From an uncultured virus (IMG/VR IMGVR_UViG_3300034374_009411) (lineage: Duplodnaviria; Heunggongvirae; Uroviricota; Caudoviricetes), in IMG/VR virus record IMGVR_UViG_3300034374_009411: a stretch of 64,000 nucleotides of DNA, one strand, 5' to 3'. Shown here in pieces: positions 1 through 55,673 of this stretch (its first letter is position 1; each line of letters starts with the position of its first letter). A program made the translations under genes and the position numbers. The notes under the pieces were generated by a model. It did no database searches, had not been told where the DNA came from, and saw nothing but the letters and a program-made list of their open reading frames with translations.

Positions 1-432
1 AGATGCTTTGTTCCAGGTCAAAACACCTTGCTGCAACCAGCGAGGTAAATTCTCATATGCGGTTTGCAATCTATCTAATAGATCTTTAGCAGTAGATGCC
101 TTGTTAGCAAGAATTGCAATATTTACATTATCATTAAAAATTGCATAATAAAGTAGATAAGATACAACAATAGTTGATTTACCAGACTGTCTTGGTAGTT
201 TGCATATATTAAATCTATTATTATGAAAACGATCAAGCATCACCTCTTGGAATGGATATGGATTAAACAACTGTAATCCATAGTCCAGGGTAACAATATT
301 AATATAGTTTTTGGCAAAATATACTGGATCATCAATACATTTTGCAAACTCTATAACTTGATTTTCAGTAAACCCTTGAGATGTATTTGCTTTTTTTAGC
401 AGTGGATTACCAAGATAATGATCAACAGCCAT
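1..432 (-). CDS. gp17: Terminase large subunit, N-terminal part (runs off the window start)
   Basis: Not in the ORF track; hand translation from ATG at 432 gives MAVDHYLGNPLLKKAN...DPVYFAKNY...KLPRQSGKST...AILANK...YENLPRWLQQG, typical T4 gp17 ATPase motifs; lies downstream of gp16. Confidence 0.95.
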   Translation of the reverse strand, partial: MAVDHYLGNPLLKKANTSQGFTENQVIEFAKCIDDPVYFAKNYINIVTLDYGLQLFNPYPFQEVMLDRFHNNRFNICKLPRQSGKSTIVVSYLLYYAIFNDNVNIAILANKASTAKDLLDRLQTAYENLPRWLQQGVLTWNKAS

Positions 433-738: not shown

Positions 739-1473
739 TTATAACTCGTTCTTGATTAGTAATATATCAAATGCCGCAGTAAAACGACCATTATTACTTC
801 TAGTAGATAGGCGGACATCAATATCGGTTTTTTCTGGCATTTCTTGTGGAAACGAAAACTTGTAAGTATATTCTCCACCACCAGTAACTTCAAATGTATG
901 TCCAACTCTAAAAATTGTAGCAACTGAATTGTATCTTACATACATCCATCCAGTAGCATCAGCACCCTCCTGTGCAGTAGCAACACCCTGATAGAGATAT
1001 CCAGTATATCCTGCGGGTACTGTATAAACTGCCATCAGAGTTTGTCCCGCATCAGCAAGAATACGAAGAACTTGTGTGCCACCTCTGGAAAAGTTGAGTT
1101 CTCCTACATTGGCTCCAGCACCACTAGAAACATAGCCACGATATACTCTCTTAAATGTCTTAGTTCCTGTAACTGTACCAGCACTAGAGAGAGTAAATTC
1201 TTCTGAAATTAATTCAAAATTTTCATCAAGACCTTCAATAGTTACGACTTTACCATTATCATCTGCACCGACTTGTGCTCCTACAAGAACTCCAGGAGTA
1301 TCAAACGCACTCCAAGGATAAAGTGTATCTTCCTTGTCCCATATAGATGCAGTTGTATTGTTTGATTGTGAAGGAGTTGCACCGAACTTGTGGATCTGTG
1401 ATGCACCTCTTACTTTTCCACGGGCAACGTTAAGATCAAACTGTTCGTCCCAGATATAATTACGAAATCCCAT
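739..1473 (-). CDS. Hypothetical beta-rich protein, probably structural
   Basis: 244-aa ORF; start overlaps the previous stop (TAATG); Gly/Thr/Val-rich. Confidence 0.8.
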   Translation of the reverse strand: MGFRNYIWDEQFDLNVARGKVRGASQIHKFGATPSQSNNTTASIWDKEDTLYPWSAFDTPGVLVGAQVGADDNGKVVTIEGLDENFELISEEFTLSSAGTVTGTKTFKRVYRGYVSSGAGANVGELNFSRGGTQVLRILADAGQTLMAVYTVPAGYTGYLYQGVATAQEGADATGWMYVRYNSVATIFRVGHTFEVTGGGEYTYKFSFPQEMPEKTDIDVRLSTRSNNGRFTAAFDILLIKNEL

Positions 1474-1967
1474 TATCTACAATTCCAACGTCTCAATGCT
1501 TTATTTATTCTAGAATCTGGATCTCTTGCTGTTTTAGAAGAAGTTCGTTTGGATTTCATACCTTTCATTCTACTACAAAACGAAGAACGACGCTTTTTTC
1601 TTTTACCTTCTGGATTTTTCTCTGTTACAGCAGTTTGTAATTTTGAACCTGGATTTTCTTGGCGATATTTTTTTACCGTATCTTTGCTCATACCATCAGT
1701 TCTGTCTTTGCGATTTGCTGATTGCCAATCTTCATCAATCCAAGATAATGTTCCATGATTGTAGTGCTTTGCACTAGTAATGGTAACTGTACCTTTAGGT
1801 GTAGATGGATATACGTTTTGAACTACTGCTCCAGGATACTCATTTTGAAGTTGTTCACCAAGTTCTTTTCTTGATGGTAAATCTCCATTCTCTATAACCA
1901 TTTCCATATTATAGAGTCTTCCTCTCCAAAGAACGTCGGCGGTAAAATGTTCACCGACGTTATCTAC
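1473..1967 (-). CDS. C-terminal extension of the polyprotein, probably reached by -1 frameshift; ends in a basic module (DUF6321-like)
   Basis: Track ORF is 1473..1907, but the frame stays open 20 codons further up to the slippery site and encodes VDNVGEHFTADVLWRGRLYN; C-terminus RRSSFCSRMKG...DPDSRINKALRRWNC. Confidence 0.75.
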   Translation of the reverse strand, partial: VDNVGEHFTADVLWRGRLYNMEMVIENGDLPSRKELGEQLQNEYPGAVVQNVYPSTPKGTVTITSAKHYNHGTLSWIDEDWQSANRKDRTDGMSKDTVKKYRQENPGSKLQTAVTEKNPEGKRKKRRSSFCSRMKGMKSKRTSSKTARDPDSRINKALRRWNCR

Positions 1968-1987
1968 TTTTTTGGCAGATCTCCTCC
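1932..1987 (-). promoter_or_regulatory. Candidate programmed -1 ribosomal frameshift signal
   Basis: Minus strand: GGAGG (1983-1987), 9 nt, A_AAA_AAG (1973-1967), UAG in a 5-nt spacer, hairpin AACGUCGG...CCGACGUU (1961-1932). Confidence 0.8.
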
Positions 1988-3253
1988 AATAACAATTGTA
2001 CCAACACTGCCTCCAGAGATATTAACATCTTCTTTTACACAATTAGGAACTACTTTACCATTCTTTTTCTTGGTTCCCTTTGCCTTGTAACCATCCCAGC
2101 ACTTGCTAGCACCAACGTTGGCGCGTGCTGTTGCCATTTTACCCTCAACATTAAGAGTTTCTGGATAATTTTTATCACCTGGCTTTCTTTTGGGTTTTCC
2201 TGCTTTACGTCTCGCATGAATGTTGTCCCAAAGACCTTTCTTCTCCTCAATTTCTATATCATCACTCTTTGAACACTCACAAGGTGTCTTTTTACATTTG
2301 CCGCATTCTTCTTTAAGTTCTACTTCTTCTTTAGTAGTAACTTTAAATAATGGGGAATCAAAATTTGCATGATTGCTAGGAAGATCTGAAGTAGAGAACT
2401 GAAGAACTCTTCCTCCAGGATAAACCTTCTCAATTTCTGCTTGAATATCTTTCTTTGTAGGTAACTTTGCTTGTGGGAAGAACATTCTTAGATATTGTGA
2501 ACGTCCCCTCCAACTAACAATGACTGATAGCAAATGACCAAACTCTGAAGGTAGTCTAACTGCCTCTTCTAGTTCAACTTCCTCATTCTGACGCTCTGCT
2601 TCTAACTTAGCAGCAATCGCCATTTGGCGGATTTTTTCATCAGACTTACCTTTAAATTGAGGTTTTTTAGACTTACGAAAATCTTTAATTACATCTCCCA
2701 TGTCTGCTTTTGCAAGATCCATACCTTCTTTTGTTGTATATCCTGCTACAGCATCTGTATTATGCTCAGTATCAGTAAGTTTTGCTTGCATCCAGGCAGG
2801 AAGATTTTTTTCCTTTTTACCAATACTCTTCTTAACTTTCTTTAAGTTTTCTTGGGATTTACTAATCTGTTTATGTGCCATGGACACTTCATGATCTTTT
2901 TCTTCTCTCTGTGAGAGTAAAGATTCTGGTGTAATTAAGTCAATAAATTCTACAAATTTGTTACCAAAAGCATCTTCAATTGTAACTGATTCATCAACAT
3001 TTGGAATTGGTTTGCAACAGTTTTCTTCAGAGCACCAATAGTGCCCATCACTACACCTCTCCTCTCCAAGAATTTTATCTACTAATTTTATTTCTTCTTT
3101 CTTAATAGTTGGTAGTCCAACCTTCATAGAAGGACGCAATTTTTTATCGGCAACTTTTCTTTCATTTTCATTTGGAGAATCCTTCATAGCAGCAATTCTA
3201 TTCTGCTTTCTTGCTGAAGAATGTGCTTTAGTATCTATATTAAAACTGGCCAT
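1964..3253 (-). CDS. Modular Lys/Glu-rich polyprotein, putative internal head protein precursor
   Basis: 429 aa; short modules separated by (I/L/V)-x-E linkers; late promoter upstream; lies between gp16 and gp17. Confidence 0.7.
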   Translation of the reverse strand: MASFNIDTKAHSSARKQNRIAAMKDSPNENERKVADKKLRPSMKVGLPTIKKEEIKLVDKILGEERCSDGHYWCSEENCCKPIPNVDESVTIEDAFGNKFVEFIDLITPESLLSQREEKDHEVSMAHKQISKSQENLKKVKKSIGKKEKNLPAWMQAKLTDTEHNTDAVAGYTTKEGMDLAKADMGDVIKDFRKSKKPQFKGKSDEKIRQMAIAAKLEAERQNEEVELEEAVRLPSEFGHLLSVIVSWRGRSQYLRMFFPQAKLPTKKDIQAEIEKVYPGGRVLQFSTSDLPSNHANFDSPLFKVTTKEEVELKEECGKCKKTPCECSKSDDIEIEEKKGLWDNIHARRKAGKPKRKPGDKNYPETLNVEGKMATARANVGASKCWDGYKAKGTKKKNGKVVPNCVKEDVNISGGSVGTIVIGGDLPKK

Positions 3254-3274: not shown

Positions 3275-3703
3275 CTATTTATCGTTTAGTCGCTTTTGAT
3301 TTTTTAAATATTTAGATAACTCATCTGTAGATCCAAAAAATACTGCATTGTTAGTAACATTTGTTGTCTTCCCTTTGGGATTTTCCTCATCAAGTTCTTT
3401 CATCTTCTTTTGAAGATCTACTATTTTGTCCGTCGCATCTGATACATTTTTAATTAATTGTGCAACAACTTCATATGCTCTTGGTTGTCCACCATCAACA
3501 GCAATTTCTAAAGCACTATCAAGTGCTTCTTGACCCTTTTCTATAATTGAATATAAATTTCCTCTGGTATATTCATAATCTTTAGTAATATCTTCATTAG
3601 GATCTTTTATAGGAACTATTTTATCTTTTCTTTCTTTTTTTCTCTCTACTATATCAGCATCAACGTTAAAAGTTGAATTTAAGTCATCGAAGTGTTCTTT
3701 CAT
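3275..3703 (-). CDS. gp16: Terminase small subunit
   Basis: DYEYTRGNLY...PRAYEV...TNNAVFFGSTDEL motifs; synteny gp15-gp16-gp17. Confidence 0.95.
   Translation of the reverse strand: MKEHFDDLNSTFNVDADIVERKKERKDKIVPIKDPNEDITKDYEYTRGNLYSIIEKGQEALDSALEIAVDGGQPRAYEVVAQLIKNVSDATDKIVDLQKKMKELDEENPKGKTTNVTNNAVFFGSTDELSKYLKNQKRLNDK
3276..3283 (-). promoter_or_regulatory. T4-type late promoter GATAAATA
   Basis: tatttatc about 22 nt upstream of the ATG at 3253. Confidence 0.7.
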
Positions 3704-6947: not shown

Positions 6948-7181
6948 TTAGTTATTCTTGCTTAAGTTTAATAACAAACTTTTAATATCATTTATATCAT
7001 TCTTTAAACTATTTAAATCTGATTCTATTTTATTAATTCTAACAGAATCTCTTTCCTTCATTTTCCTTAATTTTATGTAGGTTTCATATCCAGATTTGTC
7101 TGTATTAATAATCCCGTTAGTGACAGTATCTCTAACGAGATTATTATGACCTTCTACCTTTAGTCTTTGATTATATTCCAT
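6948..7181 (-). CDS. Small coiled-coil hypothetical protein
   Basis: KVEGHNNLVRD..T.GIIN followed by a heptad-like C-terminus; tightly coupled to both neighbours. Confidence 0.8.
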   Translation of the reverse strand: MEYNQRLKVEGHNNLVRDTVTNGIINTDKSGYETYIKLRKMKERDSVRINKIESDLNSLKNDINDIKSLLLNLSKNN

Positions 7182-10100
7182 TATGCCAAAGCAATTACTC
7201 TAAGATCCTTTATCCTTGGTGGATTTGACTGACTTGTAGATGAACCAATAATTTTGATACTAAAATATCTAAACTCTGGAAGATCATCTGCAGTAAATGT
7301 ATAGTCATTAAATAATACATCATTAGTATTTGATGATAAAACATCAGTCTTAACAACTTTCTTATCTGATAAACCATCAGAAGCAGAAATATCAATCACA
7401 TTTCCATTCACATCCAAATTATTGTATCCTGGGAAGGGATAATAAACTGGATCATTTTCTGTAGTATTTGAGATCGAATAAAATACTCTAACATCATTAA
7501 ATATATTTACATGTGCAGAAAGTAGAACTTTTAAAGAAGTTGCTGGATTTTCCAATTCAACTGGTAAGTTACAATAAATGAATTCATTAGGATCAGAGTT
7601 TAAAGTAGAAGTTCTTGGATCATTTACATAGTCAGTTATTGGGGCATTTACCCTATTTGATGTTAGAATAACACCTATTCTATCAAGATCAACTACTGGA
7701 GAAACTCTAATATCAGCAGAAGATAGACTTAGCTCTAATTCTAATGATTTATTTGAAATTAAATTTGTATTATGAATGGATTCATTGACCGTTGATGTTA
7801 TTAATCTTGGTTCTGTAAAATAATTAGTTTCATCTAAGGTAATGTCTACTATTGGACTTTCTAAGAACGATACTTCATTACCATCTACACTAGTTCCTGT
7901 TATACTCTTAAGTTTTGCCGTTACATTAGTTTCTGGCAGAACTAAAGTTTGTACAATAGGTCTCATTGATTCATACTGTATATTTTGAGTTGCATTTACA
8001 AGCTCACCACCATCAGATTTTGACTTACGAATGTAAAGTTTCTGTACACTTGGATCAGAATCTCTATTGATACCATTTTGAGATGTATCTAGTTTTATGT
8101 AATAAAAATCAAAACCTATAGATCTTGGAACAAGTGCATCTTGTAGATAATGTAGTTTGTTTATTCTCCTTAAAGAAATACCATTATTTTCATATTTAAA
8201 TACCGTAGTTTCTTCTGGATATGATATTGATTGTGTATTATCAATTTGCCTTGTAATTCCAGTTAAAGTTCCATTTGATATTCCAGTGTATGAAATAATC
8301 TCATCATTTATTAGAATGTACCCAGGATTTGTTGCACTAACTTCAATATTTTCAAATGTTGTGAAGTTTGTTGTGCTAGCAATACTAACAGGACCAGAGT
8401 CCGAGAAAGTATATTCTGCAGTCAGTGAAGTTGGTTCTATATCAGATCCTACTTCTGATAACTGGACAACATTTGTTTTAGAATGCATTGCATGGTTTTT
8501 ATGATTTACTTTAATATGTAAACCATCTTCAAATGGAGATGAAATCTCTATGTTTGAAATGACAGAATCTGCTCCACCAGTATCAAAAATAGTAGTGGTT
8601 ATTCCTAAAGAATTATCATATAGTAATGATTTTGATGTGTTATTCTCAAAATTACCCTGAACATTATCCACTACTAATTGATTAATTCCATTAATATTGG
8701 ATATAGTAAATTGTGCATTTTTTCCTAAAGGTTGTGAACCAATACTATCAATAGTTACTACATCACCTTGCTGATATCCAAATCCACCCGAATTAATAGT
8801 TGCTGCAATTGCAACTCCATTTGTACTCCCATCAGCGCCTATAGTAATATCTGCTGTTGCATTTTTACCTAAACCACTTACCGATGTTAGAGATACTCCA
8901 TTAAATGTAAAAGAAGAACCATCTGATGGAGTATATCCAATTCCAGCATTTGTTATGGTTAATTGTCCAGAAGCAGATCCACCATATCCAACAACATCAC
9001 CCCTAACAAAACTATTGTTTTGTTGTTTAATAGTATTTCCAATATCTAAAGATGTAATATCTATCACATTTGTAGTTGTTATAATTACTTTTCTGGATTC
9101 AAATTCTAAAGGATCTGGAACCAAAGTAGCTATTTGATCATTACCCAAATCCAACCTTGGGTTAAAGAATGATATAGTTCCTGGGGAATCATTATTAAAT
9201 GTAGCAGCATATAGTCTAAACTTCAAATCTTCATATTGACTTGCAGTCCAGGTAGATCCATTTTGAGATTTAAATAGTGATCCCAAATCTGGTTGCTGCG
9301 AAACAAGAGTTTGTCTTGATTCTTCTTGAAGTAATGTTGATACGTCAATCTCTCCCATTTTTGAAATCCAAACAGTATAATCATTTGAATCACTTAATAA
9401 AACTATCGCATATTCTTTATTACCTTCCAAATATATTGGGGATGGGAAGAATACTTCAGTTACTGTTAAAGAATCTTCGGAAGTAAATACCTGTTGTGGA
9501 TTTATGACAACTTCAGAAAATGGACAAACTTCATTTGTTGGATACCCATTAACCATAGGTCTTAATTGAACTGTAACTGGTATTATTGGATCTTTAGTTC
9601 TAAAGAATAGATCAACACTAGTTACAAATATACCATTAGTTTCACTAACTAAAAATGATTGTGCTAAAGGATCCCTATTTCGAGTTGACCTAATTAGTTG
9701 TCTTGCGAATCTTCCTGCACTGGGTGGATTTCTTCTGGGTGGATTTCTTTGACCTCTACGTCCTTGGTTCGGTGCTGGAGCGGGACGCCCACGACCAGCA
9801 CTTACTGGTTGAGGAAAAACTTGTGGTCGTGGTGGCGGTGCTGGCGGTGGTGGTGGCGGCGGTGGCGGTGGATCTGGTATAAATCTTGATCTAGTTTCTT
9901 GGCTTCTATCTACTGCAGTAGTTACTTGAACATCTGGTACTGCTGGTCTTCTCTCTGTAGTATCTACAACTTCAAATCTTGGTTTTCGTGTAGATCTTAT
10001 AGTTTCTTGAACTGTATTCATAGTTCCAGAAGCAAAATATTGCTCTTCTCCAGAACTATCTACAAGTCCTCCAATTTTTGTATTAGTTGAACTATTTGTT

Positions 10101-13100
10101 AGTCTAAAGACCTTTGTTCCTGCCTCAAAACTTGGATTTGAAGGTACATTTGGGTTTGGAATAAAGAATGATCCTTTTATAGAACCAATACTATCAGTAA
10201 ATAACCTTACATTTACTACTTCTGCCTCTCCATTAGGACCTCTTAGCCTCATACCTGGAACAATAAATCCACGATACAGTGATTGATTGTTTTCTGATAG
10301 TGATCTAGTGTCAACGTTCAATAATATTGAAGAACTTGAATATTCTGCTGGTACTATATAATTTTGATCATATGGACTCTCAACGTAAACATCACTAGGA
10401 TTTGATATTGGTCCGTATTTGTGGTTTGACTTTGCTACTCTAAATTGAATTCTTGGTAAAGATCTACCAAAGAATAATCTTCTTCCTCTAAAAAATCTTC
10501 CTCTTCTTCCAATTCTTGTTCCTCTGACAAGATCACCAACATTAAAAATTCCCCTAATCATTCTTATTTCGATTAGTTTTGGAACTATAAATTGATTTAC
10601 ATCCTGCTCATCAAAAAATCCATATAATCTTGTAAAAGGTTTGAATCTTCTTGCAGTAAATTCTATATTTCTAGATCTCATGAAAGGAATAACAGAGGTG
10701 TTGACAACTCTGTCTCCCTCACTCCTAGTTTCAACTTGTTCAGATACTCTTAGTCTTTTACCATCTCTTTGATCAAAACCAGTTTGTGTTGTAGTGGTTA
10801 CAGTTGTTGTTGTTACATCTCTAACATCAGTTCTAACAGTACCCCTTCCTCTTCTTATATTACTTTGATTTCTCCAATTACTTCTAGTAGTTGATGATGT
10901 ACTCGTAGAAGTGGATCCAGTCCAAGTAGTTTCCCAAGAACCCCAAACAATTGGACCGAGACCAGTTTGTGCATCATAACCAGCATATTCTAGTTGTAAT
11001 CTTGTTTGGGTATAATCATCTGATGTTATTGTTTGTGGTCTTAATCTAGTTTGATCAATCCAGATATCAGATGATGGGAATAACTCAATTGTACCCGCAT
11101 AAGTAGTAACTAAATACGGAGTCACATTTTCAACTCTTGTTGCAAATGGATTTTCAACTATTACTTCATCAGTATAATCTAATGTTAGTAATTGTCCAGT
11201 TTTTCTTATATTTGATCCAATAAGATCATCCACAAATTCAGAATCTGCAACTGTACCTGAAGTAGTTCCAATGCCAAGTAAAGATCTTCCACCCAAAAGC
11301 AAATCAATTTGTGTAGTAAAGTGAGAAGGTCTTAGTTCTAGATTTACTGGATCTATACTGTTAGTAACCCTAGAACTCTTAATTTGCGTTTTTCTAGTAC
11401 TAAAATTATCAACATATATTCCAGATTTAAACCTTGTTAGTCCATTTGAATCTGGAATTGTTAGTGATTCTGCTTTTGACTCTAAAAGTGACAATGCAGT
11501 ATAGTATTCTAAATTATTAACTCTCTGTTCTAGTTGACCAACATCCTCCATTCTATAGCGTTTATATTTGTTTAATTTTATTTCACAATCATCAATATCA
11601 CACAAATATGGTGGTATTGATATAGTAGCTACTTCAAGAGCATCTTCTATAGGTATTGGTGGCAAAGGATCTTCTGAAGGAACTCCATTTAACAACTGAA
11701 ATTCTCCAGTTTTTAATAGGAACAATTTATCAATTCTTGCCAAGTAGTGAGAATATGTTAATCTTATAGATTCATCTGATGCAAGAATATTTTTTGCAGA
11801 ATTATTTGAGTCTGAAAATTGTCTTGAAGTAAATTCAAATGGTGATAGTTGTGAATTTGAATTGAATGGTAATACCCTTGGTCTAATATCAATAATGTCT
11901 GAGGTTCTGACATCATTTTTTACACTTAATAAGTCACAATAATCAAACTGAGAATAAGAATTGGCGGTTGTAATATCACCATTTTCAGAAGAAGAAAACT
12001 CTCCAGATTCGAAAATAACTTTTATCTGATTTTTTGGACTTTTGGAATTTTCCTTCCTAATGATTCTAGAATAATCACAAATAGTATCTCTTTGCCCAGA
12101 ATCTAAAGTGTATCTATCTGTTATATTTGTGGATCCTTGTCCAATGTCTGAAATTGTTCCTAAAATATTGCTTTTTTCTGATCTTACTGTCTCACCAATA
12201 ATAAATGCAAGATCGCTTAAATAAACTATAGATATTTTTGAAGAATTTATATTTTCTACATAAATTGCTTCAGCTTCAGAAGTTTCTCCTTTAATCACTT
12301 CAGAAATAACTAAATCATCAGTTCTACCAGTTTGACCATTTAAATTTGCTAATGTTAAAGAAGGTAATACAGGTTCAAATGTATCTGAAGATTCAAAAAT
12401 AGCATATACTTTAGTTACATCAGGTTCTAACAAGCAAATTTCTTTATCCTGAACTCTTAGACCATAACCATAACTTCCATATTCTAGTCCATCATCTAAA
12501 GTCGTACTTCCAATACCAGAAGAAACTGATGTAGATTTATTTACAATAATAGAGTTTGCTCTATTAGCAGTTTTTGTTCTACTAGTGACTCTATTTTTTG
12601 ATAATGTTGCTATAAGTCTTCCAGGTCCATTGGTAGACATTCCATATATGGTGATTGATTTTGATCCATCACCATATATAAATTTATCGCCTGTCAATAC
12701 TTCAAAATCACCATTAGAATTTATTAATACATACCTTTCTTCATCGAATGGTAAAAATGCTTCATCGGATTCACATTGAATTGTATTAGTAACATTCTGA
12801 TTTATTACTAAATTAAATTCTTTTCTAATTGTAATTTCTGATTCTGTTAAATCAACATTAGAAATATATTTTTTTGGTAATGGTGTATATAAAGTATTAT
12901 CTGTAGATGATTGCAATTTTGTTCCAATCAAACTAAAGTCCAATGCAATAACATCAGAAGAAGAAGGCATTAAACCATAATTTATTCCTGTTACTTCAGT
13001 AACACTTGTAATTCCAATAGTATATTCATCTGTTATACTTACTACTTTACCATAAGTTTTATATTCTGGAGACACTAATCCAGTATTTGTAAATGATACA

Positions 13101-14899
13101 TAGTCTCCAACTTTAAATATTTTATCTAGTTGAACATCTGTTGAAACAACAGTAGATACATTAGCAACTGCTTGCCCAACAGTAACTTGACCTACACTAG
13201 TGTAATTAGAAAGTTTTGTGTCTGCATTAAAAGTCTCACCAATACCAATTGTACTATGTAATGATTTTACATCTAAAGTTTTATATTCTGTTACACTAGT
13301 AATTAATGAATTTCCATCTACACCATTGAGAATTAATTTCTCACCTTTTATAAATTTTCCTCTTGTACCATAAACAGTTGCAATTCCTGCACTATTTGTG
13401 TCAAATCTTAAATGCCCACTTGCTCCACTAGACTTACCTTCAATATAAACTGGAGTTGTCCATGAAACAGAAGAATTTAAATTTAATTCTGTATAGTATT
13501 GTGTATCATATAAAGATATGTCCCAAGTATTTAATTCTTGAACAGCAGTATCATAAGATCCACCTTCTAAAGCATAATCATATATTCTTGATATACCAAT
13601 TTCTTTGCCACTAGGAATAAATTGGTTTTCTCCAATTCTACTATCTCTTAAACTAATTAAAGATGATGTAGTAAATCCAATTCTTGGAGCACCAACGACT
13701 CTATTAAGAGACATTGATGGACCAGTAAAATAGTTTATTGCTTGGTTTTCTAATGTACTAGTTGTTCTTGGTTTTTGGAAATCTAGATATGTTGAAGTTA
13801 AATATTCTATCTCATAACCCTTAACATATGCTTTTCCTGGAGAAATTTTATATGTCCCCAAAGATTCTCTAGGTACATTACCATTTCTAGTTAATTGATT
13901 TGATTTAAATACTCCATCATTACCTTTTCTATCATCTAGAGTTTCTTTTGCAGACACTGAAAATGATTTTACATAAAAATCACCAGATTGCTCATAAGTT
14001 CTTCTAGCAAGCTCATCTCCAATATCATTATAAACTGATCTGTTATATGCTTTCTCAACGCCTCCTGATCTTACAATAAAGAGTTCTACAAAGTTTTCAT
14101 GTTTATCTACTTCTATTGGTCTTTTTGCTAAAACAGCTCTTATTTGTAGTCTATCTGCACCAGGAGCTGCATAATTATTGAATCCAGAAGCATTATCGTT
14201 TAAACTATTATCTTGTCCAGATGTTACAATATTTTCATAAATTTCAAATCCAATTCTATATGATGGATTATTCTCATGAGGTTCTAATATTAAAGTCTGT
14301 GCTAAAACCTTTACAAAAGTTCCTCTTAGATAGTAAACTCCTTCCTGCATAAAAACTGCAGAACCAATAGAAGTTGATTGTGTAGGTGCAGTGGTTGTAA
14401 ATGCTTGCCCTTGCTGAAAAACTGCAGCAGTTGAATTTAGATTTTCTTCTAAAATCAATAGTTCATTATCATCAAATACCGCCTTATCATCATTTCCAGT
14501 TGAAAGATAATTTATGTATAATGTAATATACCCTCTATCAGAATATTCAGTTCCTATACTATCAACTATTTTTGCCTTAAGATTTGAATTTTGTCCCCTA
14601 ATTGTAATCCCAGCCAAATCTCCCCTGAATGAGTCTAAATTTATTCCTAGATATTGACTCTCTACTTCTACACAATTTAATTCATTATTATAAGAATAAT
14701 TTCCAGGAATAACTACTGACCCCTCTTTAAACAAATGTGTTCCAATTTGTTCAACTTGGTTTTGTAAAATAGACTGTAAAGTTGTAAGTTCTCTAGATTG
14801 TACTGGAAAACCTGGCTTAAAAAGAACTTTATGATATCCTTTTAGGGGATCATAATCATCAAAATAGGGAGATATATTTAAATTTGTTTCTTGTGGCAT
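7181..14899 (-). CDS. Large virion structural protein, DUF4815 / VrlC-like
   Basis: 2572 aa; PYFDDY...VLFKPG..VQSRELT, APGADRL, DPLAQSF, GSLFKSQNGSTW..SQYEDLKF; follows gp8. Confidence 0.9.
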   Translation of the reverse strand: MPQETNLNISPYFDDYDPLKGYHKVLFKPGFPVQSRELTTLQSILQNQVEQIGTHLFKEGSVVIPGNYSYNNELNCVEVESQYLGINLDSFRGDLAGITIRGQNSNLKAKIVDSIGTEYSDRGYITLYINYLSTGNDDKAVFDDNELLILEENLNSTAAVFQQGQAFTTTAPTQSTSIGSAVFMQEGVYYLRGTFVKVLAQTLILEPHENNPSYRIGFEIYENIVTSGQDNSLNDNASGFNNYAAPGADRLQIRAVLAKRPIEVDKHENFVELFIVRSGGVEKAYNRSVYNDIGDELARRTYEQSGDFYVKSFSVSAKETLDDRKGNDGVFKSNQLTRNGNVPRESLGTYKISPGKAYVKGYEIEYLTSTYLDFQKPRTTSTLENQAINYFTGPSMSLNRVVGAPRIGFTTSSLISLRDSRIGENQFIPSGKEIGISRIYDYALEGGSYDTAVQELNTWDISLYDTQYYTELNLNSSVSWTTPVYIEGKSSGASGHLRFDTNSAGIATVYGTRGKFIKGEKLILNGVDGNSLITSVTEYKTLDVKSLHSTIGIGETFNADTKLSNYTSVGQVTVGQAVANVSTVVSTDVQLDKIFKVGDYVSFTNTGLVSPEYKTYGKVVSITDEYTIGITSVTEVTGINYGLMPSSSDVIALDFSLIGTKLQSSTDNTLYTPLPKKYISNVDLTESEITIRKEFNLVINQNVTNTIQCESDEAFLPFDEERYVLINSNGDFEVLTGDKFIYGDGSKSITIYGMSTNGPGRLIATLSKNRVTSRTKTANRANSIIVNKSTSVSSGIGSTTLDDGLEYGSYGYGLRVQDKEICLLEPDVTKVYAIFESSDTFEPVLPSLTLANLNGQTGRTDDLVISEVIKGETSEAEAIYVENINSSKISIVYLSDLAFIIGETVRSEKSNILGTISDIGQGSTNITDRYTLDSGQRDTICDYSRIIRKENSKSPKNQIKVIFESGEFSSSENGDITTANSYSQFDYCDLLSVKNDVRTSDIIDIRPRVLPFNSNSQLSPFEFTSRQFSDSNNSAKNILASDESIRLTYSHYLARIDKLFLLKTGEFQLLNGVPSEDPLPPIPIEDALEVATISIPPYLCDIDDCEIKLNKYKRYRMEDVGQLEQRVNNLEYYTALSLLESKAESLTIPDSNGLTRFKSGIYVDNFSTRKTQIKSSRVTNSIDPVNLELRPSHFTTQIDLLLGGRSLLGIGTTSGTVADSEFVDDLIGSNIRKTGQLLTLDYTDEVIVENPFATRVENVTPYLVTTYAGTIELFPSSDIWIDQTRLRPQTITSDDYTQTRLQLEYAGYDAQTGLGPIVWGSWETTWTGSTSTSTSSTTRSNWRNQSNIRRGRGTVRTDVRDVTTTTVTTTTQTGFDQRDGKRLRVSEQVETRSEGDRVVNTSVIPFMRSRNIEFTARRFKPFTRLYGFFDEQDVNQFIVPKLIEIRMIRGIFNVGDLVRGTRIGRRGRFFRGRRLFFGRSLPRIQFRVAKSNHKYGPISNPSDVYVESPYDQNYIVPAEYSSSSILLNVDTRSLSENNQSLYRGFIVPGMRLRGPNGEAEVVNVRLFTDSIGSIKGSFFIPNPNVPSNPSFEAGTKVFRLTNSSTNTKIGGLVDSSGEEQYFASGTMNTVQETIRSTRKPRFEVVDTTERRPAVPDVQVTTAVDRSQETRSRFIPDPPPPPPPPPPAPPPRPQVFPQPVSAGRGRPAPAPNQGRRGQRNPPRRNPPSAGRFARQLIRSTRNRDPLAQSFLVSETNGIFVTSVDLFFRTKDPIIPVTVQLRPMVNGYPTNEVCPFSEVVINPQQVFTSEDSLTVTEVFFPSPIYLEGNKEYAIVLLSDSNDYTVWISKMGEIDVSTLLQEESRQTLVSQQPDLGSLFKSQNGSTWTASQYEDLKFRLYAATFNNDSPGTISFFNPRLDLGNDQIATLVPDPLEFESRKVIITTTNVIDITSLDIGNTIKQQNNSFVRGDVVGYGGSASGQLTITNAGIGYTPSDGSSFTFNGVSLTSVSGLGKNATADITIGADGSTNGVAIAATINSGGFGYQQGDVVTIDSIGSQPLGKNAQFTISNINGINQLVVDNVQGNFENNTSKSLLYDNSLGITTTIFDTGGADSVISNIEISSPFEDGLHIKVNHKNHAMHSKTNVVQLSEVGSDIEPTSLTAEYTFSDSGPVSIASTTNFTTFENIEVSATNPGYILINDEIISYTGISNGTLTGITRQIDNTQSISYPEETTVFKYENNGISLRRINKLHYLQDALVPRSIGFDFYYIKLDTSQNGINRDSDPSVQKLYIRKSKSDGGELVNATQNIQYESMRPIVQTLVLPETNVTAKLKSITGTSVDGNEVSFLESPIVDITLDETNYFTEPRLITSTVNESIHNTNLISNKSLELELSLSSADIRVSPVVDLDRIGVILTSNRVNAPITDYVNDPRTSTLNSDPNEFIYCNLPVELENPATSLKVLLSAHVNIFNDVRVFYSISNTTENDPVYYPFPGYNNLDVNGNVIDISASDGLSDKKVVKTDVLSSNTNDVLFNDYTFTADDLPEFRYFSIKIIGSSTSQSNPPRIKDLRVIALA
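9826..9873 (-). repeat. CCN codon run encoding a polyproline tract
   Basis: ggtggcggtg-type GC-rich run encoding PPPPPPPPPPAPPPRP. Confidence 0.9.
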
Positions 14900-42331: not shown

Positions 42332-43435
42332 TTATTGTACAACCGTAATTGTTCGATCATCTGGATTCTCAACTGGATAATAATGATCTTGCCCCACAAT
42401 TACCCCACAACCACTAAGTGTTTGATTAAAACCATTAAGATCTCTAAGAACATTTGGAATATCATCCTCTGGATGTCCTTGCATCCAGTACATTGGATAA
42501 ATCACCTTTGTTGGATTTCCTAAAACTGTCGCCCACAAACTGTATGTACTATTACCCATAATAATATACTCACACATTGACATTAAACAAAGATCATATG
42601 AATAATTATATTGTCCAGTTACAATCTTAGTTCTTGATGGTTCGTCCAAACTATTTAAAATTTTCTTTAATTCCTCATTCAACTGTTCTTGACTTGGATT
42701 TGTAATATCTACTGAATTTAGATTATTAATTGCAGTATCTAGTAAAAATGCATTATAGTTGAATCGATATGTTCCATCATAATCAAGTACCCTATCAATA
42801 CTTTCCATCGTACTATCAAAACCTTGATTGTTTTGATAAATGTCCTTAATAATGGTAAATCTGGATCTATCATAACTCAAATTATCTAAGATATACTCTG
42901 CTCTTTCTTTATTATTTGAAAATACTAGAACAGGTAGATCTTCTGGTAATTGTGCTAGAGCATTCTCATAATAATCATAATTACATAAAAACATTCCACT
43001 GACAATATCTTCAAAATCACCAGCACGAATGTGCATCGCAATTACTTCACTACCAAATTGATTCTTAAATTCTTCACATTTATTCCTAATGTTCTCTTTA
43101 AAAACTAACTCACTCTTGATTTGATCAAAAATATCAGAGATATAGTTGTTTGGAGTTGGATATACTGATATAGTGTGATCATCAAGAACTCCATTGCAGA
43201 TTGTATCAAATCCAGCATCATCATCAAATTCAAGATAACTTGTCCGTTCTTCAAAATTAGGATCAATGTTTAAAGTCAAATTATCAAATGTATTTCTAAG
43301 TGCCTTTAAATCTGAATTCTTAAGAACCCAATCAAATCCCCTCTTTGTTGAGATAGTTCTCATCATTACATAAGAGGATATTTGATATCCTAATCCTGTC
43401 GCAGAATCGTTAATTTGTTGTTGATAGGTAATCAT
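42332..43435 (-). CDS. Alpha-1,2-fucosyltransferase-like glycosyltransferase (GT11)
   Basis: GLGYQI, AMHIRAGDF, YYENAL, DLCLMSMC..IIMGNSTYSLWA, VIYP..W. Confidence 0.85.
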   Translation of the reverse strand: MITYQQQINDSATGLGYQISSYVMMRTISTKRGFDWVLKNSDLKALRNTFDNLTLNIDPNFEERTSYLEFDDDAGFDTICNGVLDDHTISVYPTPNNYISDIFDQIKSELVFKENIRNKCEEFKNQFGSEVIAMHIRAGDFEDIVSGMFLCNYDYYENALAQLPEDLPVLVFSNNKERAEYILDNLSYDRSRFTIIKDIYQNNQGFDSTMESIDRVLDYDGTYRFNYNAFLLDTAINNLNSVDITNPSQEQLNEELKKILNSLDEPSRTKIVTGQYNYSYDLCLMSMCEYIIMGNSTYSLWATVLGNPTKVIYPMYWMQGHPEDDIPNVLRDLNGFNQTLSGCGVIVGQDHYYPVENPDDRTITVVQ

Positions 43436-43500
43436 GAATCTTGTGTATAAATGTCTCTGTAAGGTGTCTAGAATCGCCTGTAATGCCCTTTAAATATTGT

Positions 43501-43713
43501 TTAGTGTAGTTTATCCATCTCTTCTGCAATTTCCAACAATTCCATAGATCCTTTGTAACTTATGGAATCACAATCTTCAACTAGTTCCTTAATCAAATAT
43601 GCCAGAGACTTTGCTCCTATTTGATCTTTTTTATATGAAGTTACTTTAGTTAAACGAGCGGCATATACTAAAAACTTTCTTTCTAATTCAATTGCTTTAC
43701 TCTTTGCTGACAT
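43501..43713 (-). CDS. Hypothetical protein
   Basis: 70-aa ORF between the two GT11 paralogs. Confidence 0.65.
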   Translation of the reverse strand: MSAKSKAIELERKFLVYAARLTKVTSYKKDQIGAKSLAYLIKELVEDCDSISYKGSMELLEIAEEMDKLH

Positions 43714-43718
43714 GATTT

Positions 43719-44795
43719 CTAATTAATAGTAAAAGAACGATGATCTGGATTATCTACACCTATATATGTCTCTTTATCCATTACCTTACCTTCCTCAACT
43801 CTTGTTTGATCAAATCCTTCCAGATCTCTAACAATTTTCTTTATATTATTTTGCTTCCAATACTTTGGATAAACTACTTTTTTACTGTCTCCAAGTATGG
43901 TTGCCCACATGCTATAATAACTATTTGACATTATGTGATAATCACACATTGACATCAAACACAAATCAAAAGAATAATTATAGAGGTTGTTCTTTACTTT
44001 ATCAACATACTTGGGATGCAACTCTCTCACAAGTTCATCAATCTTCATTTTAATAGACTTTTTATTAATTGCTATGTCATTGGAGGCAAGATTGTCCGAT
44101 GCCATTTTAATTAATGCAGTTTTATAATTATATTTGCACGTTGGATCAGTATCAATCAATCTATCCAATTCTTGTCCAACATCACAATTAATATATTCAT
44201 TGTCATTGAATATATCAACGATTAGTTCAAATCTACTATCAAATAAAAAATAAGGATCATTTAAATGTTGATCCTTATCATTTGTAAACAATAGTACTTT
44301 TACATCTTTTGGTAGTTCTTCCAATGCATATTCATAATAATCTACATTTGCTTCAAATCTAATTGATTTGGCACCCCTTTTGGGAACATGCATCGCAATA
44401 AATTGGTTCTCCTCAAACTTATCTAAAAAGTCTTTACACTTTTGATATACCTCATCCCTAAACTCTAACTCACTAACAATATCATAAAAGTAATTGTCAT
44501 CTTTAAAGATATTAGATGTTAGATTTAAAGATAAAATAGAATTGTCATTTAAGAATCGAACCACATTATCAAACTTATCAACATGATTTAGTTTTAATTC
44601 TTCAAATTCTTTATTACTATCATCAATCTTCACATCAATATTTGAGAATGTATTCTTTAGTGCTAGTAAGTCACCATTATCAATACAATACTCAAATCCA
44701 GTAGTTTTTGATAGAGACTTCATCAATGTGTAGATTGACAACTGATGACCAAGACCAGTTCCATATGTATTATATCTTTGCTTGTACTTGATCAT
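43719..44795 (-). CDS. GT11 paralog with an altered donor-binding motif
   Basis: GLGHQL, AMHVPKRG (not HxRxxD), DLCLMSMCDYHIMSNSYYSMWA. Confidence 0.8.
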   Translation of the reverse strand: MIKYKQRYNTYGTGLGHQLSIYTLMKSLSKTTGFEYCIDNGDLLALKNTFSNIDVKIDDSNKEFEELKLNHVDKFDNVVRFLNDNSILSLNLTSNIFKDDNYFYDIVSELEFRDEVYQKCKDFLDKFEENQFIAMHVPKRGAKSIRFEANVDYYEYALEELPKDVKVLLFTNDKDQHLNDPYFLFDSRFELIVDIFNDNEYINCDVGQELDRLIDTDPTCKYNYKTALIKMASDNLASNDIAINKKSIKMKIDELVRELHPKYVDKVKNNLYNYSFDLCLMSMCDYHIMSNSYYSMWATILGDSKKVVYPKYWKQNNIKKIVRDLEGFDQTRVEEGKVMDKETYIGVDNPDHRSFTIN

Positions 44796-49205: not shown

Positions 49206-50372
49206 TTAAATAAACCAAGTAACGATAGAGTATCTAATACCCTCAAGAACTTTCATTATTTCATGTGGATACATGAAGTTTGAGGGGAACACTATTACAG
49301 ATCCTGGTGCTGTTCTAATTTGAATTTCCCTATCAAAGAATGCCATCTCACCACCAATATAATCATCATTTAGATTGATTGACATTGATAGTGTTCTTGG
49401 ATTTGCTTTGTAACTATCGGTATGTTGTCGGTAGAATCCACCAACGTTATACCTTAAAAGATCATATCCACTATCTGATTCTAGTGTAAGAGTTGGGAAT
49501 TCGTCAACATATTTTTTTGCTGCAATAAATGACTTCTTAAATAACAAATCATCAATACTTTTTCTAACTTCTTGATTATTTGATATTACATCAGGTCGTG
49601 ATACATTTAAAATATCACAATTTCTTACTGTCGTAGACTCTTGACCAGTTCCTACCAATGCAGTTGTCCACTCATCACTATTACAGTATTCTTTAATAAT
49701 ACTGTCACATTCTTCTTTAGTAAGAATGTCATCATAGACTCTAATAAAGTCAGCAAGTGGATTTGTACTTGTAAATACTATTGTTTTCTCTGGTGGTTCT
49801 TCTCTTTGTGGTGGTTTAATTGCATCCTCAACGTATTTGTTTTGTTTGCAAAAGTACTTTAACTTATGTGGTCCATTGACATTAACGTAATGTAAGAACA
49901 ACTGAGTGCAATATTCACCATCAAAAGCATCTCTACCATGTCTAGCAATTGTCCCCAGATAGATCATTGCATCGCCTGGTTCTAAAGAGACATGAGTTCT
50001 TGTATTATCTGGAGATTCAATCCAAATATCCCAAGGTTTATCACAATCAAGGTTCAAGGTCAAAGATATTTCACATTCACCCTTATCAACATGACCATCT
50101 AATACATTACCATTTTGGTATATCCTTGCATAGGAATATGTGGGAAGAACTTGCTCCCCAACCAATTGACCCACTTGTGTGTTTTTTTCTACAAGTAACT
50201 GTACAAATGGTATATGATCAAACTTAGATACACAACCCTGAACTTGAGGATCATCCTCCAAATTATGAGTTTTACTATAATGTTTGAATTCTTCTGCTAA
50301 TTCTTTTGCCCGTTCCGATGATATAAAATTGGGAATAACTAAGTAATTTTTGTCAATCAATTGTTGGTTCAT
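49206..50372 (-). CDS. Tandem 2OG-Fe(II) oxygenase; C-terminal domain prolyl-4-hydroxylase-like
   Basis: Domain 1 HVD...H.R; domain 2 HTD...GGE...H.I..V..G.RYSIVTW. Confidence 0.9.
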   Translation of the reverse strand: MNQQLIDKNYLVIPNFISSERAKELAEEFKHYSKTHNLEDDPQVQGCVSKFDHIPFVQLLVEKNTQVGQLVGEQVLPTYSYARIYQNGNVLDGHVDKGECEISLTLNLDCDKPWDIWIESPDNTRTHVSLEPGDAMIYLGTIARHGRDAFDGEYCTQLFLHYVNVNGPHKLKYFCKQNKYVEDAIKPPQREEPPEKTIVFTSTNPLADFIRVYDDILTKEECDSIIKEYCNSDEWTTALVGTGQESTTVRNCDILNVSRPDVISNNQEVRKSIDDLLFKKSFIAAKKYVDEFPTLTLESDSGYDLLRYNVGGFYRQHTDSYKANPRTLSMSINLNDDYIGGEMAFFDREIQIRTAPGSVIVFPSNFMYPHEIMKVLEGIRYSIVTWFI

Positions 50373-53520: not shown

Positions 53521-54252
53521 TCACAAACTCATAGATTCTGCAATATACTTTGCAATCTTCTCATTAGTAACAGTTCCAGAATGAACACAATCTCTTGCAG
53601 AATCAACCTTCTTAATAAACTTACATTCTGGTATTATATTCTTATTTGACGGGAATAATGTAAAATCAGAATACCTTATTTTATTCCATAATTGAATTGC
53701 ATTAATCCTAGTCAACTTTAAAAACGATTCTGCATGAGAATCAAATAATCTCCAAGATTTGCCCAAACTAGCAATATCGTCATTCCAACTACCACAATGA
53801 ACTACCTTATCATTCAAATACAATGGACATCTTAGATAGGAAGACCAACCAAAAACAACACCAATAGGATTTGGTAAAGACTCTAACATCATTAAAGAAT
53901 TGTGCAATGAGAACATTGGAGAAGAACCAGGAACTCCCATATTTACAACATTCACTTTTGACATATCAGAAAGATGATAAGATATTGTCTCATCTTCAGA
54001 TACCCCAACCCCAAAAACATGAGAGCAACCAAATATAACTATTGATTTTGCCCAGTTTATATCTTTAAATTCTTTAGTCCTATACCCATGAGAATTTGTA
54101 AAGTATCTAACTATTTTATTCCTATAAGTCCAATTTGTTGGTTGAGTCTTTAAATTCTTTTTATATAATGCTTTACTATCCTGATCAAACCAATTTGCAT
54201 CTTCAACCTTATCTTCTATCGGAAAGAATTTTAAATCCTCTATATTTTTCAT
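53521..54252 (-). CDS. SGNH/GDSL-like protein
   Basis: NSHGYR, FGCSHVFGVG, NMGVPGSS, RDCVH (DxxH). Confidence 0.75.
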   Translation of the reverse strand: MKNIEDLKFFPIEDKVEDANWFDQDSKALYKKNLKTQPTNWTYRNKIVRYFTNSHGYRTKEFKDINWAKSIVIFGCSHVFGVGVSEDETISYHLSDMSKVNVVNMGVPGSSPMFSLHNSLMMLESLPNPIGVVFGWSSYLRCPLYLNDKVVHCGSWNDDIASLGKSWRLFDSHAESFLKLTRINAIQLWNKIRYSDFTLFPSNKNIIPECKFIKKVDSARDCVHSGTVTNEKIAKYIAESMSL

Positions 54253-55673
54253 GAAAATATCTTTACTTTATTTTCCTTTGACCATCTGATACAATCATCT
54301 TCATCATTTAATATTGGTTCACCCTTAATGTTCAAACTAGTATTTAAGAGGATTGGATGACCAGTTTGCTTTCCCCAACGTAAAAGAAGATCATGTAACC
54401 TTGGAGCATCAGACTTTTTAACTGTTTGTACTCTACTAGTATTATCAACATGAACAATGCCAGGGAACTTTTCTGGCATCTTACACTTTACAGCATATTG
54501 CATAAAAGGACTCTCAACCATATCCTCATGCATGTCAAAATACTTCGATGCATACTCAATTGGAACTACTGGTGAGAATGGTCTAAAAGGTTCCCTTTTC
54601 TTTATTCTATTTGCAACATCTTTTATATTTCTAAATGTAGCATCTCCAATTAAACTCCTAGCACCTAATGCCCTAGGTCCAAACTCTGCTCTACCTCTAG
54701 CAACACCACAAATTCTATGCTTAGTTAAGTAATTAACAATATCGGCATTAGTATCTTTGTGCAATATCTTATAACCAATATAGGGAGTAAAGTTAATCTT
54801 TACCTTTTTATGTGCAAGAACGGCACCTATTGCAGAACCAGCGTCTCCTGGTGCGGGAATGATCCAAACGTTTTTATAATAATCATATGCATTGATATTT
54901 GCTACACAGTTTAAAGCACAACCACCAACCAATGTAAGATTATCAGATTTTATGAGTCTTTTTGCCTTTGTCAGTATAGTTTTAAATAACAATTCATAAA
55001 CCTCTTGGGTTGCAGCAGCAATATCTTCAACAGACTCTTCAGGTCTCCAATCCAAACAACCTTTATGAAAATTTCTTTTACAGTTAAAGTTTAAGTCTAT
55101 CAGCTCATCTATAATTGCATCTTTTAATTTATTTTTATCTCCAAATGCAGATAATGCCATTAAGATATACTCTTCTTCATTTGGTTTAAATCCACAACGT
55201 TGCGTCATTGCAGAATACCAAAGACCTATACTATTTGGATATGTAAGTTTATACTTTAATTTTAACTCTTTTTTATATGCTTCCCAAATACTTAAAGTAG
55301 TAAATTCACCAATAGCATCAATAACAACTACGGCAGAATGATGGAATTTACTGGTAAAATGACCAGCAGATGCATGACTATAGTGATGATCTATAAACTT
55401 ATGCTTACATTCAAAATATTTTTTAAAATTTTGAATGCCAAATCCTTGTCCTGCGGTTACCTGTCTTAGTTTTTTCTTAAGTGGGTTTTCGTACCAACAA
55501 ACTAATTCAGGTTTACCATATGCAAGAGCATGATGTATTAATGACTCTGGTATATCAGGGTCATTTTTTATTTTACTAAATCTTTCACTCTCACTAGCAA
55601 AAACTAATGTATCATTAGAAAAAACAGATAATGCTGCATTGTGACTATTTGCAGATATTCCCCAGGTAATCAT
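54249..55673 (-). CDS. Carbamoyltransferase (NodU/CmcH/TobZ family)
   Basis: ERFSKIKND, HH.SHA, DAIGE, GGCALNC.AN, EFGPRALG.RS, KKREPFRPF, H.D.TSRVQ, LNTSLN..GEP. Confidence 0.95.
   Translation of the reverse strand: MITWGISANSHNAALSVFSNDTLVFASESERFSKIKNDPDIPESLIHHALAYGKPELVCWYENPLKKKLRQVTAGQGFGIQNFKKYFECKHKFIDHHYSHASAGHFTSKFHHSAVVVIDAIGEFTTLSIWEAYKKELKLKYKLTYPNSIGLWYSAMTQRCGFKPNEEEYILMALSAFGDKNKLKDAIIDELIDLNFNCKRNFHKGCLDWRPEESVEDIAAATQEVYELLFKTILTKAKRLIKSDNLTLVGGCALNCVANINAYDYYKNVWIIPAPGDAGSAIGAVLAHKKVKINFTPYIGYKILHKDTNADIVNYLTKHRICGVARGRAEFGPRALGARSLIGDATFRNIKDVANRIKKREPFRPFSPVVPIEYASKYFDMHEDMVESPFMQYAVKCKMPEKFPGIVHVDNTSRVQTVKKSDAPRLHDLLLRWGKQTGHPILLNTSLNIKGEPILNDEDDCIRWSKENKVKIFS

Follow-up and report, generated by a model that had tools for sequence, protein, structure and literature searches.

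The window analysed here is the whole 64,000-nucleotide (nt) stretch of IMG/VR record IMGVR_UViG_3300034374_009411, from an uncultured virus of the Caudoviricetes, a T4-like cyanophage from freshwater. On its minus strand, between the terminase genes gp16 (the upstream neighbour) and gp17, lie two open reading frames (ORFs), ORF1 and ORF2, which a preliminary description had read as joined by programmed -1 ribosomal frameshifting. Our analysis supports that proposal, and from the comparisons below we consider it highly probable that the two ORFs form a single late gene expressed in this way. Programmed frameshifting is the best reading because the three elements of the signal have the spacings known from the literature, the split is found again in many assemblies, and a relative, P0382, encodes the predicted product in a single frame, colinear across the junction.

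The 3' end of ORF1 reads GGA GGA GAT CTG CCA AAA AAG TAG, and the Shine-Dalgarno (SD) element, slippery heptamer A_AAA_AAG and adjacent stop codon that had been noticed there are all in place (Table 1). The hairpin originally drawn does begin 5 nt after the heptamer, but its extended bulged stem gives way in our prediction to 10 base pairs (bp) closing a 10-nt loop. Over 40 nt the predicted stability is -15.2 kcal/mol (z -4.8, 0/200 shuffles equally stable) and over a 52-nt segment z is -2.9 with 2/200 shuffles equally stable; the window hairpin is equalled in stability by 10 of 5000 synonymous shuffles and by 1 of 73 homologous segments taken from relatives that are in frame. The stem is composed of rare C-ending codons, and Rfam gave no match. 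Open from 2021, the -1 frame lacks any ATG, GTG or TTG before 1907, as had been claimed, and also any CTG or ATH. A -1 shift yields a computed product of 593 amino acids (aa) in frame with ORF2, the size first estimated, and the zero-frame product is 429 aa.

The heptamer is infrequent in these genomes: among 17,677 codon positions in the window ORFs A_AAA_AAG is found in frame 3 times, and among 104,401 in related loci 45 times. In the related loci one of 259 distinct ORF ends carries it, that one belonging to a second frameshift lineage (type B, below). Elsewhere it is under-used (43/214 vs 178/365 for AAG-first pairs), in genomes that are related and not independent. By itself the heptamer is not unique in the gene, because a second in-frame A_AAA_AAG (Arg-Lys-Lys) lies inside DUF6321 (window 1599-1593, minus strand). 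The late genes starting at 432, 710, 1473, 3253, 4698, 6102 and 6946 (minus strand) have no clear SD before their start codons, which makes the internal GGAGG at 1987 conspicuous.

Table 1. Features of the gp16-gp17 interval, in window coordinates
Feature	Position	Strand	Basis or remark
Terminase large subunit gp17, N-terminal part	1..432	-	PHROG match
ORF2, -1 frame, from first Met	1473..1907	-	ORF list
DUF6321 module, 85 aa, isoelectric point 11, two Cys; C-terminus of long product	1473..1730	-	Pfam
Beta-beta-alpha-beta domain (phrog_1742), 79 aa, entirely in -1 frame	1731..1967	-	PHROG, AlphaFold
20 codons of -1 frame preceding first Met; strand 1 and part of strand 2	1908..1967	-	Models, alignment
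Predicted 10-bp stem and 10-nt loop, from 5 nt after heptamer	1932..1961	-	Predicted fold, arms 1961-1952 / 1941-1932
Zero-frame stop UAG, directly after heptamer	1964..1966	-	Sequence
ORF1, zero frame, 429 aa, short product; chain of small, often Cys-paired modules	1964..3253	-	ORF list, PHROG
Slippery heptamer A_AAA_AAG (Pro-Lys-Lys), last ORF1 codons	1967..1973	-	Present in 11/11 near-identical loci
Zero-frame end of ORF1, homologous to N-terminal segment of stand-alone 105-aa phrog_1742 protein	1967..2032	-	Alignments
SD-like GGAGG (Gly-Gly codons)	1983..1987	-	9 nt upstream of heptamer
Paralogous beta-beta-alpha-beta copy within ORF1, residues 239-283	2405..2539	-	Pairwise comparison
Terminase small subunit gp16	3275..3703	-	Profile matches; upstream neighbour of ORF1
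ATAAATA, late-promoter-like	3276..3282	-	Motif scan

The protein encoded across the junction argues for the same conclusion. DUF6321 (PF19846) scores 45.5 bits against a gathering cut-off of 28.5, and the domain repeat that had been aligned by eye inside ORF1 is real, with 14/45 residues identical and an E value of 2e-7 for the pair. In AlphaFold models (mean pLDDT 69 and 76) the phrog_1742 fold starts just past the shift and the segment N-terminal to it, a linker that contains the shift point, is of low confidence; strand 1 occupies residues 6-14, ahead of Met21, in keeping with the earlier remark that the first part of the duplicated domain precedes the Met. The zero-frame end aligns with stand-alone phrog_1742 over 24 columns (E 8e-4, probability only 24%), which is weak alone, and with P0382 at 18/25 identical residues (E 5e-10). 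P0382, 943 aa long and encoded on a 36-kb contig, has the same architecture in a single frame: its residues 755-779 match the zero-frame end, residue 779 being the last Lys of ORF1, and its residues 781-943 match -1-frame residues 2-164 without a gap (137/163 identical, 84%), including 15 of 19 pre-Met codons. Because P0382 is colinear in one frame, the predicted shifted product occurs naturally as an ordinary protein.

P0382 came from a cluster look-up; a protein search for longer in-frame fusions had yielded no such fusion in 14 candidates and had missed it. On 50 contigs, the longest of 118 kb, gene calls for P0384 (83% identical to ORF2) use the same internal start, a sign that it may be a more distantly related split copy; P0382 and P0384 were both compared at the protein level. 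Gene callers report products of 142-144 aa on many contigs, dividing the locus in two just as had been anticipated. Sequence searches of the PDB gave no match for the fold, Foldseek reached a best E of 0.25, and the ESM Atlas search returned DUF6321 clusters only. The structural neighbours eL20/LX, phi29 p6 and T7 gp2 (best Z 4.6) were within background and no function was assigned from them.

Recurrence of the split and selection on the -1 frame

The same split is present in 11/11 near-identical loci with differing flanking sequence, which we call type A (8 from IMG/VR and 3 from metagenomes, of which L176 and L003 may be one contig). Among stored proteins with the ORF1 segment, 13/14 stop at the same Lys, one of these on 31 contigs. 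One RNA-library contig, from 1 of 4 runs examined, bridges the slip site with no gap; RNA-library contigs as a class contain gaps and are uninformative on strand or level. Pattern scans of viral contigs and one metagenome scan for the fused arrangement found the near-identical lineage only; of 7 distinct viral or metagenome rows that lay outside the lineage or were chance matches, 5 (L174, L177, L178, L180 and L182) were unrelated.

The window was compared with L002, the most diverged copy for which DNA is available. The last 62 zero-frame codons differ by 19 synonymous and 2 other changes, the 20 pre-Met codons by 2 synonymous and 0 other changes (both in the hairpin loop), the rest of the phrog_1742 domain by 5 and 0, and DUF6321 by 20 and 8; for the whole of ORF2 the figures are 27 synonymous and 8 other. 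Because synonymous changes dominate in L002, the -1 frame is, on this sequence comparison, under purifying selection.

A probable modular virion protein and a probable second frameshift lineage

Relatives shuffle small modules within this gene and differ in module content. Homologues that are in frame belong to the virion. One of them, T4-GC119, is listed with 13 peptides in virion data (PMC3037559, Table S8), in a first column that we take to be S-SM1 on the strength of rows confined to S-SM1. A further in-frame homologue, S-SCSM1 gp29, is annotated 'virion protein'; 45 proteins are reported from mass spectrometry (PMC9602691, excerpt). The T4 protease gp21 cleaves after L/I-X-E (PMC9026906, excerpt). 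In the joint that precedes DUF6321, P1 is Glu in 64/64 and P3 is F, I, L, V or M in 63/64 distinct junctions, a motif kept despite variation in the modules upstream. When either module occurs as a stand-alone protein, it begins with a short leader whose last residue, at about position 9-10, is Glu. These leader-like starts may resemble the T4 capsid-targeting signal; at the N-terminus of the window's ORF1 no such start is evident. The gene resembles a modular polyprotein of the virion whose joints are gp21-like, and its product would be processed by a protease and located in the head.

The preliminary description had proposed alignment of the locus across T4-like cyanophages as a check on conservation, and there the frameshift site proved to be confined to particular lineages. 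Our DUF6321 sample, the 80 best loci in IMG/VR, holds 2 of window type, 2 of type B (L234 and L243), 3 short genes that begin at a Met of their own, 63 genes complete in one frame and 10 whose frame stays open as far as the locus edge. The heptamer played no part in finding L234 and L243; in these a 544-aa ORF ends A_AAA_AAG-UAG and DUF6321 lies in the -1 frame. A heptamer-conditioned scan returned 29 matches, of which 4 were type B, 5 were DUF6321 genes in frame and 20 were unrelated; it added L266 and L288, the other two type B matches being the L234 and L243 contigs. All 4 type B contigs have the gene between gp16 and gp17. Their shift falls 3-9 codons before DUF6321 and not inside phrog_1742, and that of the window 79 codons upstream of DUF6321, so that the two shifts are at different points; DUF6321 is the one module that would be gated in both lineages. 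Across sites the codon preceding Lys-Lys is CCA, TTA, GTA or GCA, always A-ending, and GAG-GT is found in 0/15 in-frame relatives with G-E-E-V vs GAGGU in 3/3 type B sequences.

A genome-contig search yielded 5 loci, with 0/3 examined broken in the stretch covered. An apparent split in S-RSM4 proved to be a short gene that starts at a Met of its own and follows an unrelated gene. Beyond these phages, the T7-like Prochlorococcus phage P-SCSP1u (OM416779.1, L183 2388-2713) has DUF6321 as a stand-alone gene immediately after that of the major capsid protein; an unannotated Lys-rich ORF of 23 codons precedes DUF6321 and overlaps its start with a stop codon. Pelagibacter phages also have DUF6321.

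Evidence on both sides of the frameshift interpretation

Several observations weigh against this interpretation. DUF6321 shows no break in 73 of the 80 loci sampled, phrog_1742 is a continuous stand-alone gene of ~105 aa in 79/79 evaluable cases among 80 matches listed, and split cultured phage records number 0/17 examined, of about 310 with a match. Type B hairpins (7 bp, 7-8 nt downstream) are weak (z -2.1 and -1.0), a hairpin of the L266 type is present in 19/64 distinct junction segments, and the type B SD, GAGGU, lies 15 nt upstream in 3/3 sequences, just outside 9-14. Of the stem covariation suggested as a check, the 11 type A copies, which are close, give no example: they have no compensatory stem change and differ in the hairpin only by the 2 loop changes. 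Low divergence spans the whole phrog_1742 domain and not the signal alone. For the polyprotein idea, [ILV]-x-E shows no enrichment in ORF1 (6 vs 7.2 in shuffles). In favour of a separate second lineage is a gp16 tree in which the window type groups with the in-frame L253 and L205 (100/98) and type B with the in-frame L241 (95/91), a single clade for both lineages being rejected (p-AU 3.25e-5); the test was made on 21 chosen rows and on a neighbour, gp16, not on the frameshift gene itself, and repeated loss, or recombination that separated the gene from its gp16, may account for the pattern in place of separate origin. On the opposing side again, GGAGAGGA about 12 nt upstream of Met1907 is more SD-like than the other listed starts.

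That purine run favours a reading of the locus as two separate genes, with ORF1 stopping at UAG, ORF2 starting at Met1907 or Met1901 and the hairpin only pausing ribosomes or stabilising the RNA. The other genes here start without an SD, DUF6321 stands alone elsewhere, and the internal start is the one that gene callers choose. Starting at Met1907, however, removes strand 1 and half of strand 2, and the codons before it are those that match P0382 and have only synonymous changes in L002; the run itself is the expected output of W-R-G-R codons, a motif scan found no late-promoter-like sequence between ORF1 and ORF2, and the heptamer plus stop in two lineages goes unexplained. We regard separate genes as quite improbable. 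A recent, fixed frameshift mutation, after which the 3' modules would be dispensable and decaying or made only by an unselected leak, would fit the lineage restriction and the existence of an in-frame relative, could have come about by loss of one base, and would have occurred in a region, gp16-gp17, described as a variable hot spot (PMC3037559, excerpt). Purifying selection on ORF2 between split copies stands against it, as do P0384 with its same internal start, a hairpin made of rare C-ending codons, and the break of both lineages exactly at A_AAA_AAG-stop, all of which leave it little chance.

RNA polymerase slippage on the A6 run, adding a base in some transcripts, would make the same fusion from the A-run that is present, and contigs lose rare variants, so the gapless RNA contig is not decisive. 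The run is only 6 A and G-ended, slippage needs no SD or hairpin at ribosomal spacings, and the bridging contig has no gap; we think this explanation very improbable indeed. A homopolymer error of sequencing or assembly in a single in-frame gene, which had been named as a case that would overturn the proposal, gains something from P0382 being in frame and from the copy in L001 (511-1970), where ORF1 is broken after 284 aa at a place that L003 reads through, probably by an assembly indel in an A-run elsewhere in ORF1. It is contradicted by the 11/11 split loci with their differing flanks and by the 13/14 stored proteins, and its probability is practically nil.

The most reasonable explanation is programmed -1 frameshifting, most likely with two Lys tRNAs slipping in tandem under stimulation from the SD and the hairpin. 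Ribosomes on Lys-Lys at A_AAA_AAG would be caught between SD pairing 9 nt behind and the hairpin, which begins 5 nt ahead; the codon that follows the heptamer is UAG. The fraction that slips would make the 593-aa protein, adding the beta-beta-alpha-beta domain and DUF6321, and the rest would stop at 429 aa. A virion polyprotein of this kind could be cut by a gp21-type head protease after hydrophobic-X-Glu, and the shift would probably set or lower the copy number of the last two modules. Judging from the protein alignment, the signal probably arose in an in-frame ancestor that lost one base just after an existing Lys-Lys pair, the hairpin being gained later by synonymous changes.

Genomic context, known systems and significance

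Homologues of the gene come from Synechococcus and Prochlorococcus myoviruses (311 records), and of 24 listed runs the 20 that contain the stretch are freshwater metagenomes; we infer a picocyanobacterium as host. No tRNA genes were found within the 64-kb window. We take ATAAATA at 3276..3282 to follow the T4-type late-promoter consensus. The adjoining 244-aa gene (phrog_8198, window 739-1473, minus strand) has a by-eye likeness to S-SCSM1 gp31, a 'virion protein', and the close relative L002 has a different 437-aa gene in its place (937-2250). Farther away on the minus strand are a 2572-aa protein (7181-14899) with a Pro/Arg-rich low-complexity insert at about 9700-9890 and, within 42332-44795, 49206-50372 and 54249-55673, two glycosyltransferases, a tandem 2OG-Fe(II)-oxygenase-like gene and a carbamoyltransferase; large cyanophages carry auxiliary genes of this sort. 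A 2OG-Fe(II) oxygenase gene (58901-58886, minus strand) finishes with A_AAU_UUU_UAA and is followed by an ORF in the -1 frame; the latter starts at an ATG of its own, 5 nt past the stop, and the arrangement is probably ordinary.

In dnaX/IS3-type cassettes, A_AAA_AAG has an SD-like element 9-14 nt upstream and a stem-loop 5-8 nt downstream (excerpts of PMC5009743 and PMC4066793). As in E. coli dnaX and the IS3 family (IS911, IS3), the window has the heptamer with an SD at 9 nt and a stem at 5 nt; the heptamer is in the zero frame, the downstream structure is predicted, and the -1 frame is open, conserved and without a start of its own. In dnaX the shift truncates the product, whereas here translation in the zero frame ends immediately and a shift is needed for the long form, which, judged from sequence comparison and unlike the case of dnaX, is the ancestral one. 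The window gene also departs from dnaX and IS3 in being a phage virion gene whose signal is lineage-restricted with in-frame relatives. In lambda gpG/gpGT a -1 shift at the end of a late gene makes short and C-terminally extended forms (PMC5009743, excerpt), a likeness that extends to the window gene, which nevertheless is no tail chaperone, has no adjoining tape-measure gene and is not broadly conserved; identity as a tail assembly chaperone was considered and rejected, the neighbours being gp16 and gp17 and the PHROG matches of unknown function. Like virion proteins made in two lengths at a set ratio it would have two lengths, but unlike two-length major capsid or tail proteins its extension is two modules, probably protease-released. 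With the T4 internal proteins IPI-III and other gp21 substrates it shares basic small modules and L/I-X-E-like joints (PMC9026906, excerpt); it differs from IPI-III in chaining many modules in one ORF, and no sequence relation to them emerged, though no test aimed at one was made.

In the training set of PRFect, 2397/2476 annotated phage frameshifts are tail chaperones, and 'cyano' is absent from the portion of the text searched (PMC10885494). The literature searched has no description of this frameshift site, which large prediction tables (bioRxiv 10.1101/2025.10.02.679949) could contain, and no mention of DUF6321. The frameshift mechanism is classical; the setting, in gene class and phage group, is new to the literature searched, and the interest of the site lies in this setting and in its apparent repeated origin.

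For annotation, what are now two hypothetical genes would become a single gene that has two products. Forms that are in frame or stand alone coexist with two that are separately frameshifted, a natural series on the origin of programmed frameshift signals that is also useful for asking why the amount of DUF6321 would be limited. We put forward tentatively, as a possibility short of the favoured one, that the heads of T4-like cyanophages are filled with the products of a single shuffled polyprotein gene after cleavage by the head protease, and that at least two lineages separately evolved the same frameshift to tune the dose of the terminal DUF6321 module. If this is true, programmed frameshifts would arise repeatedly and recently from in-frame ancestors, with all states extant.

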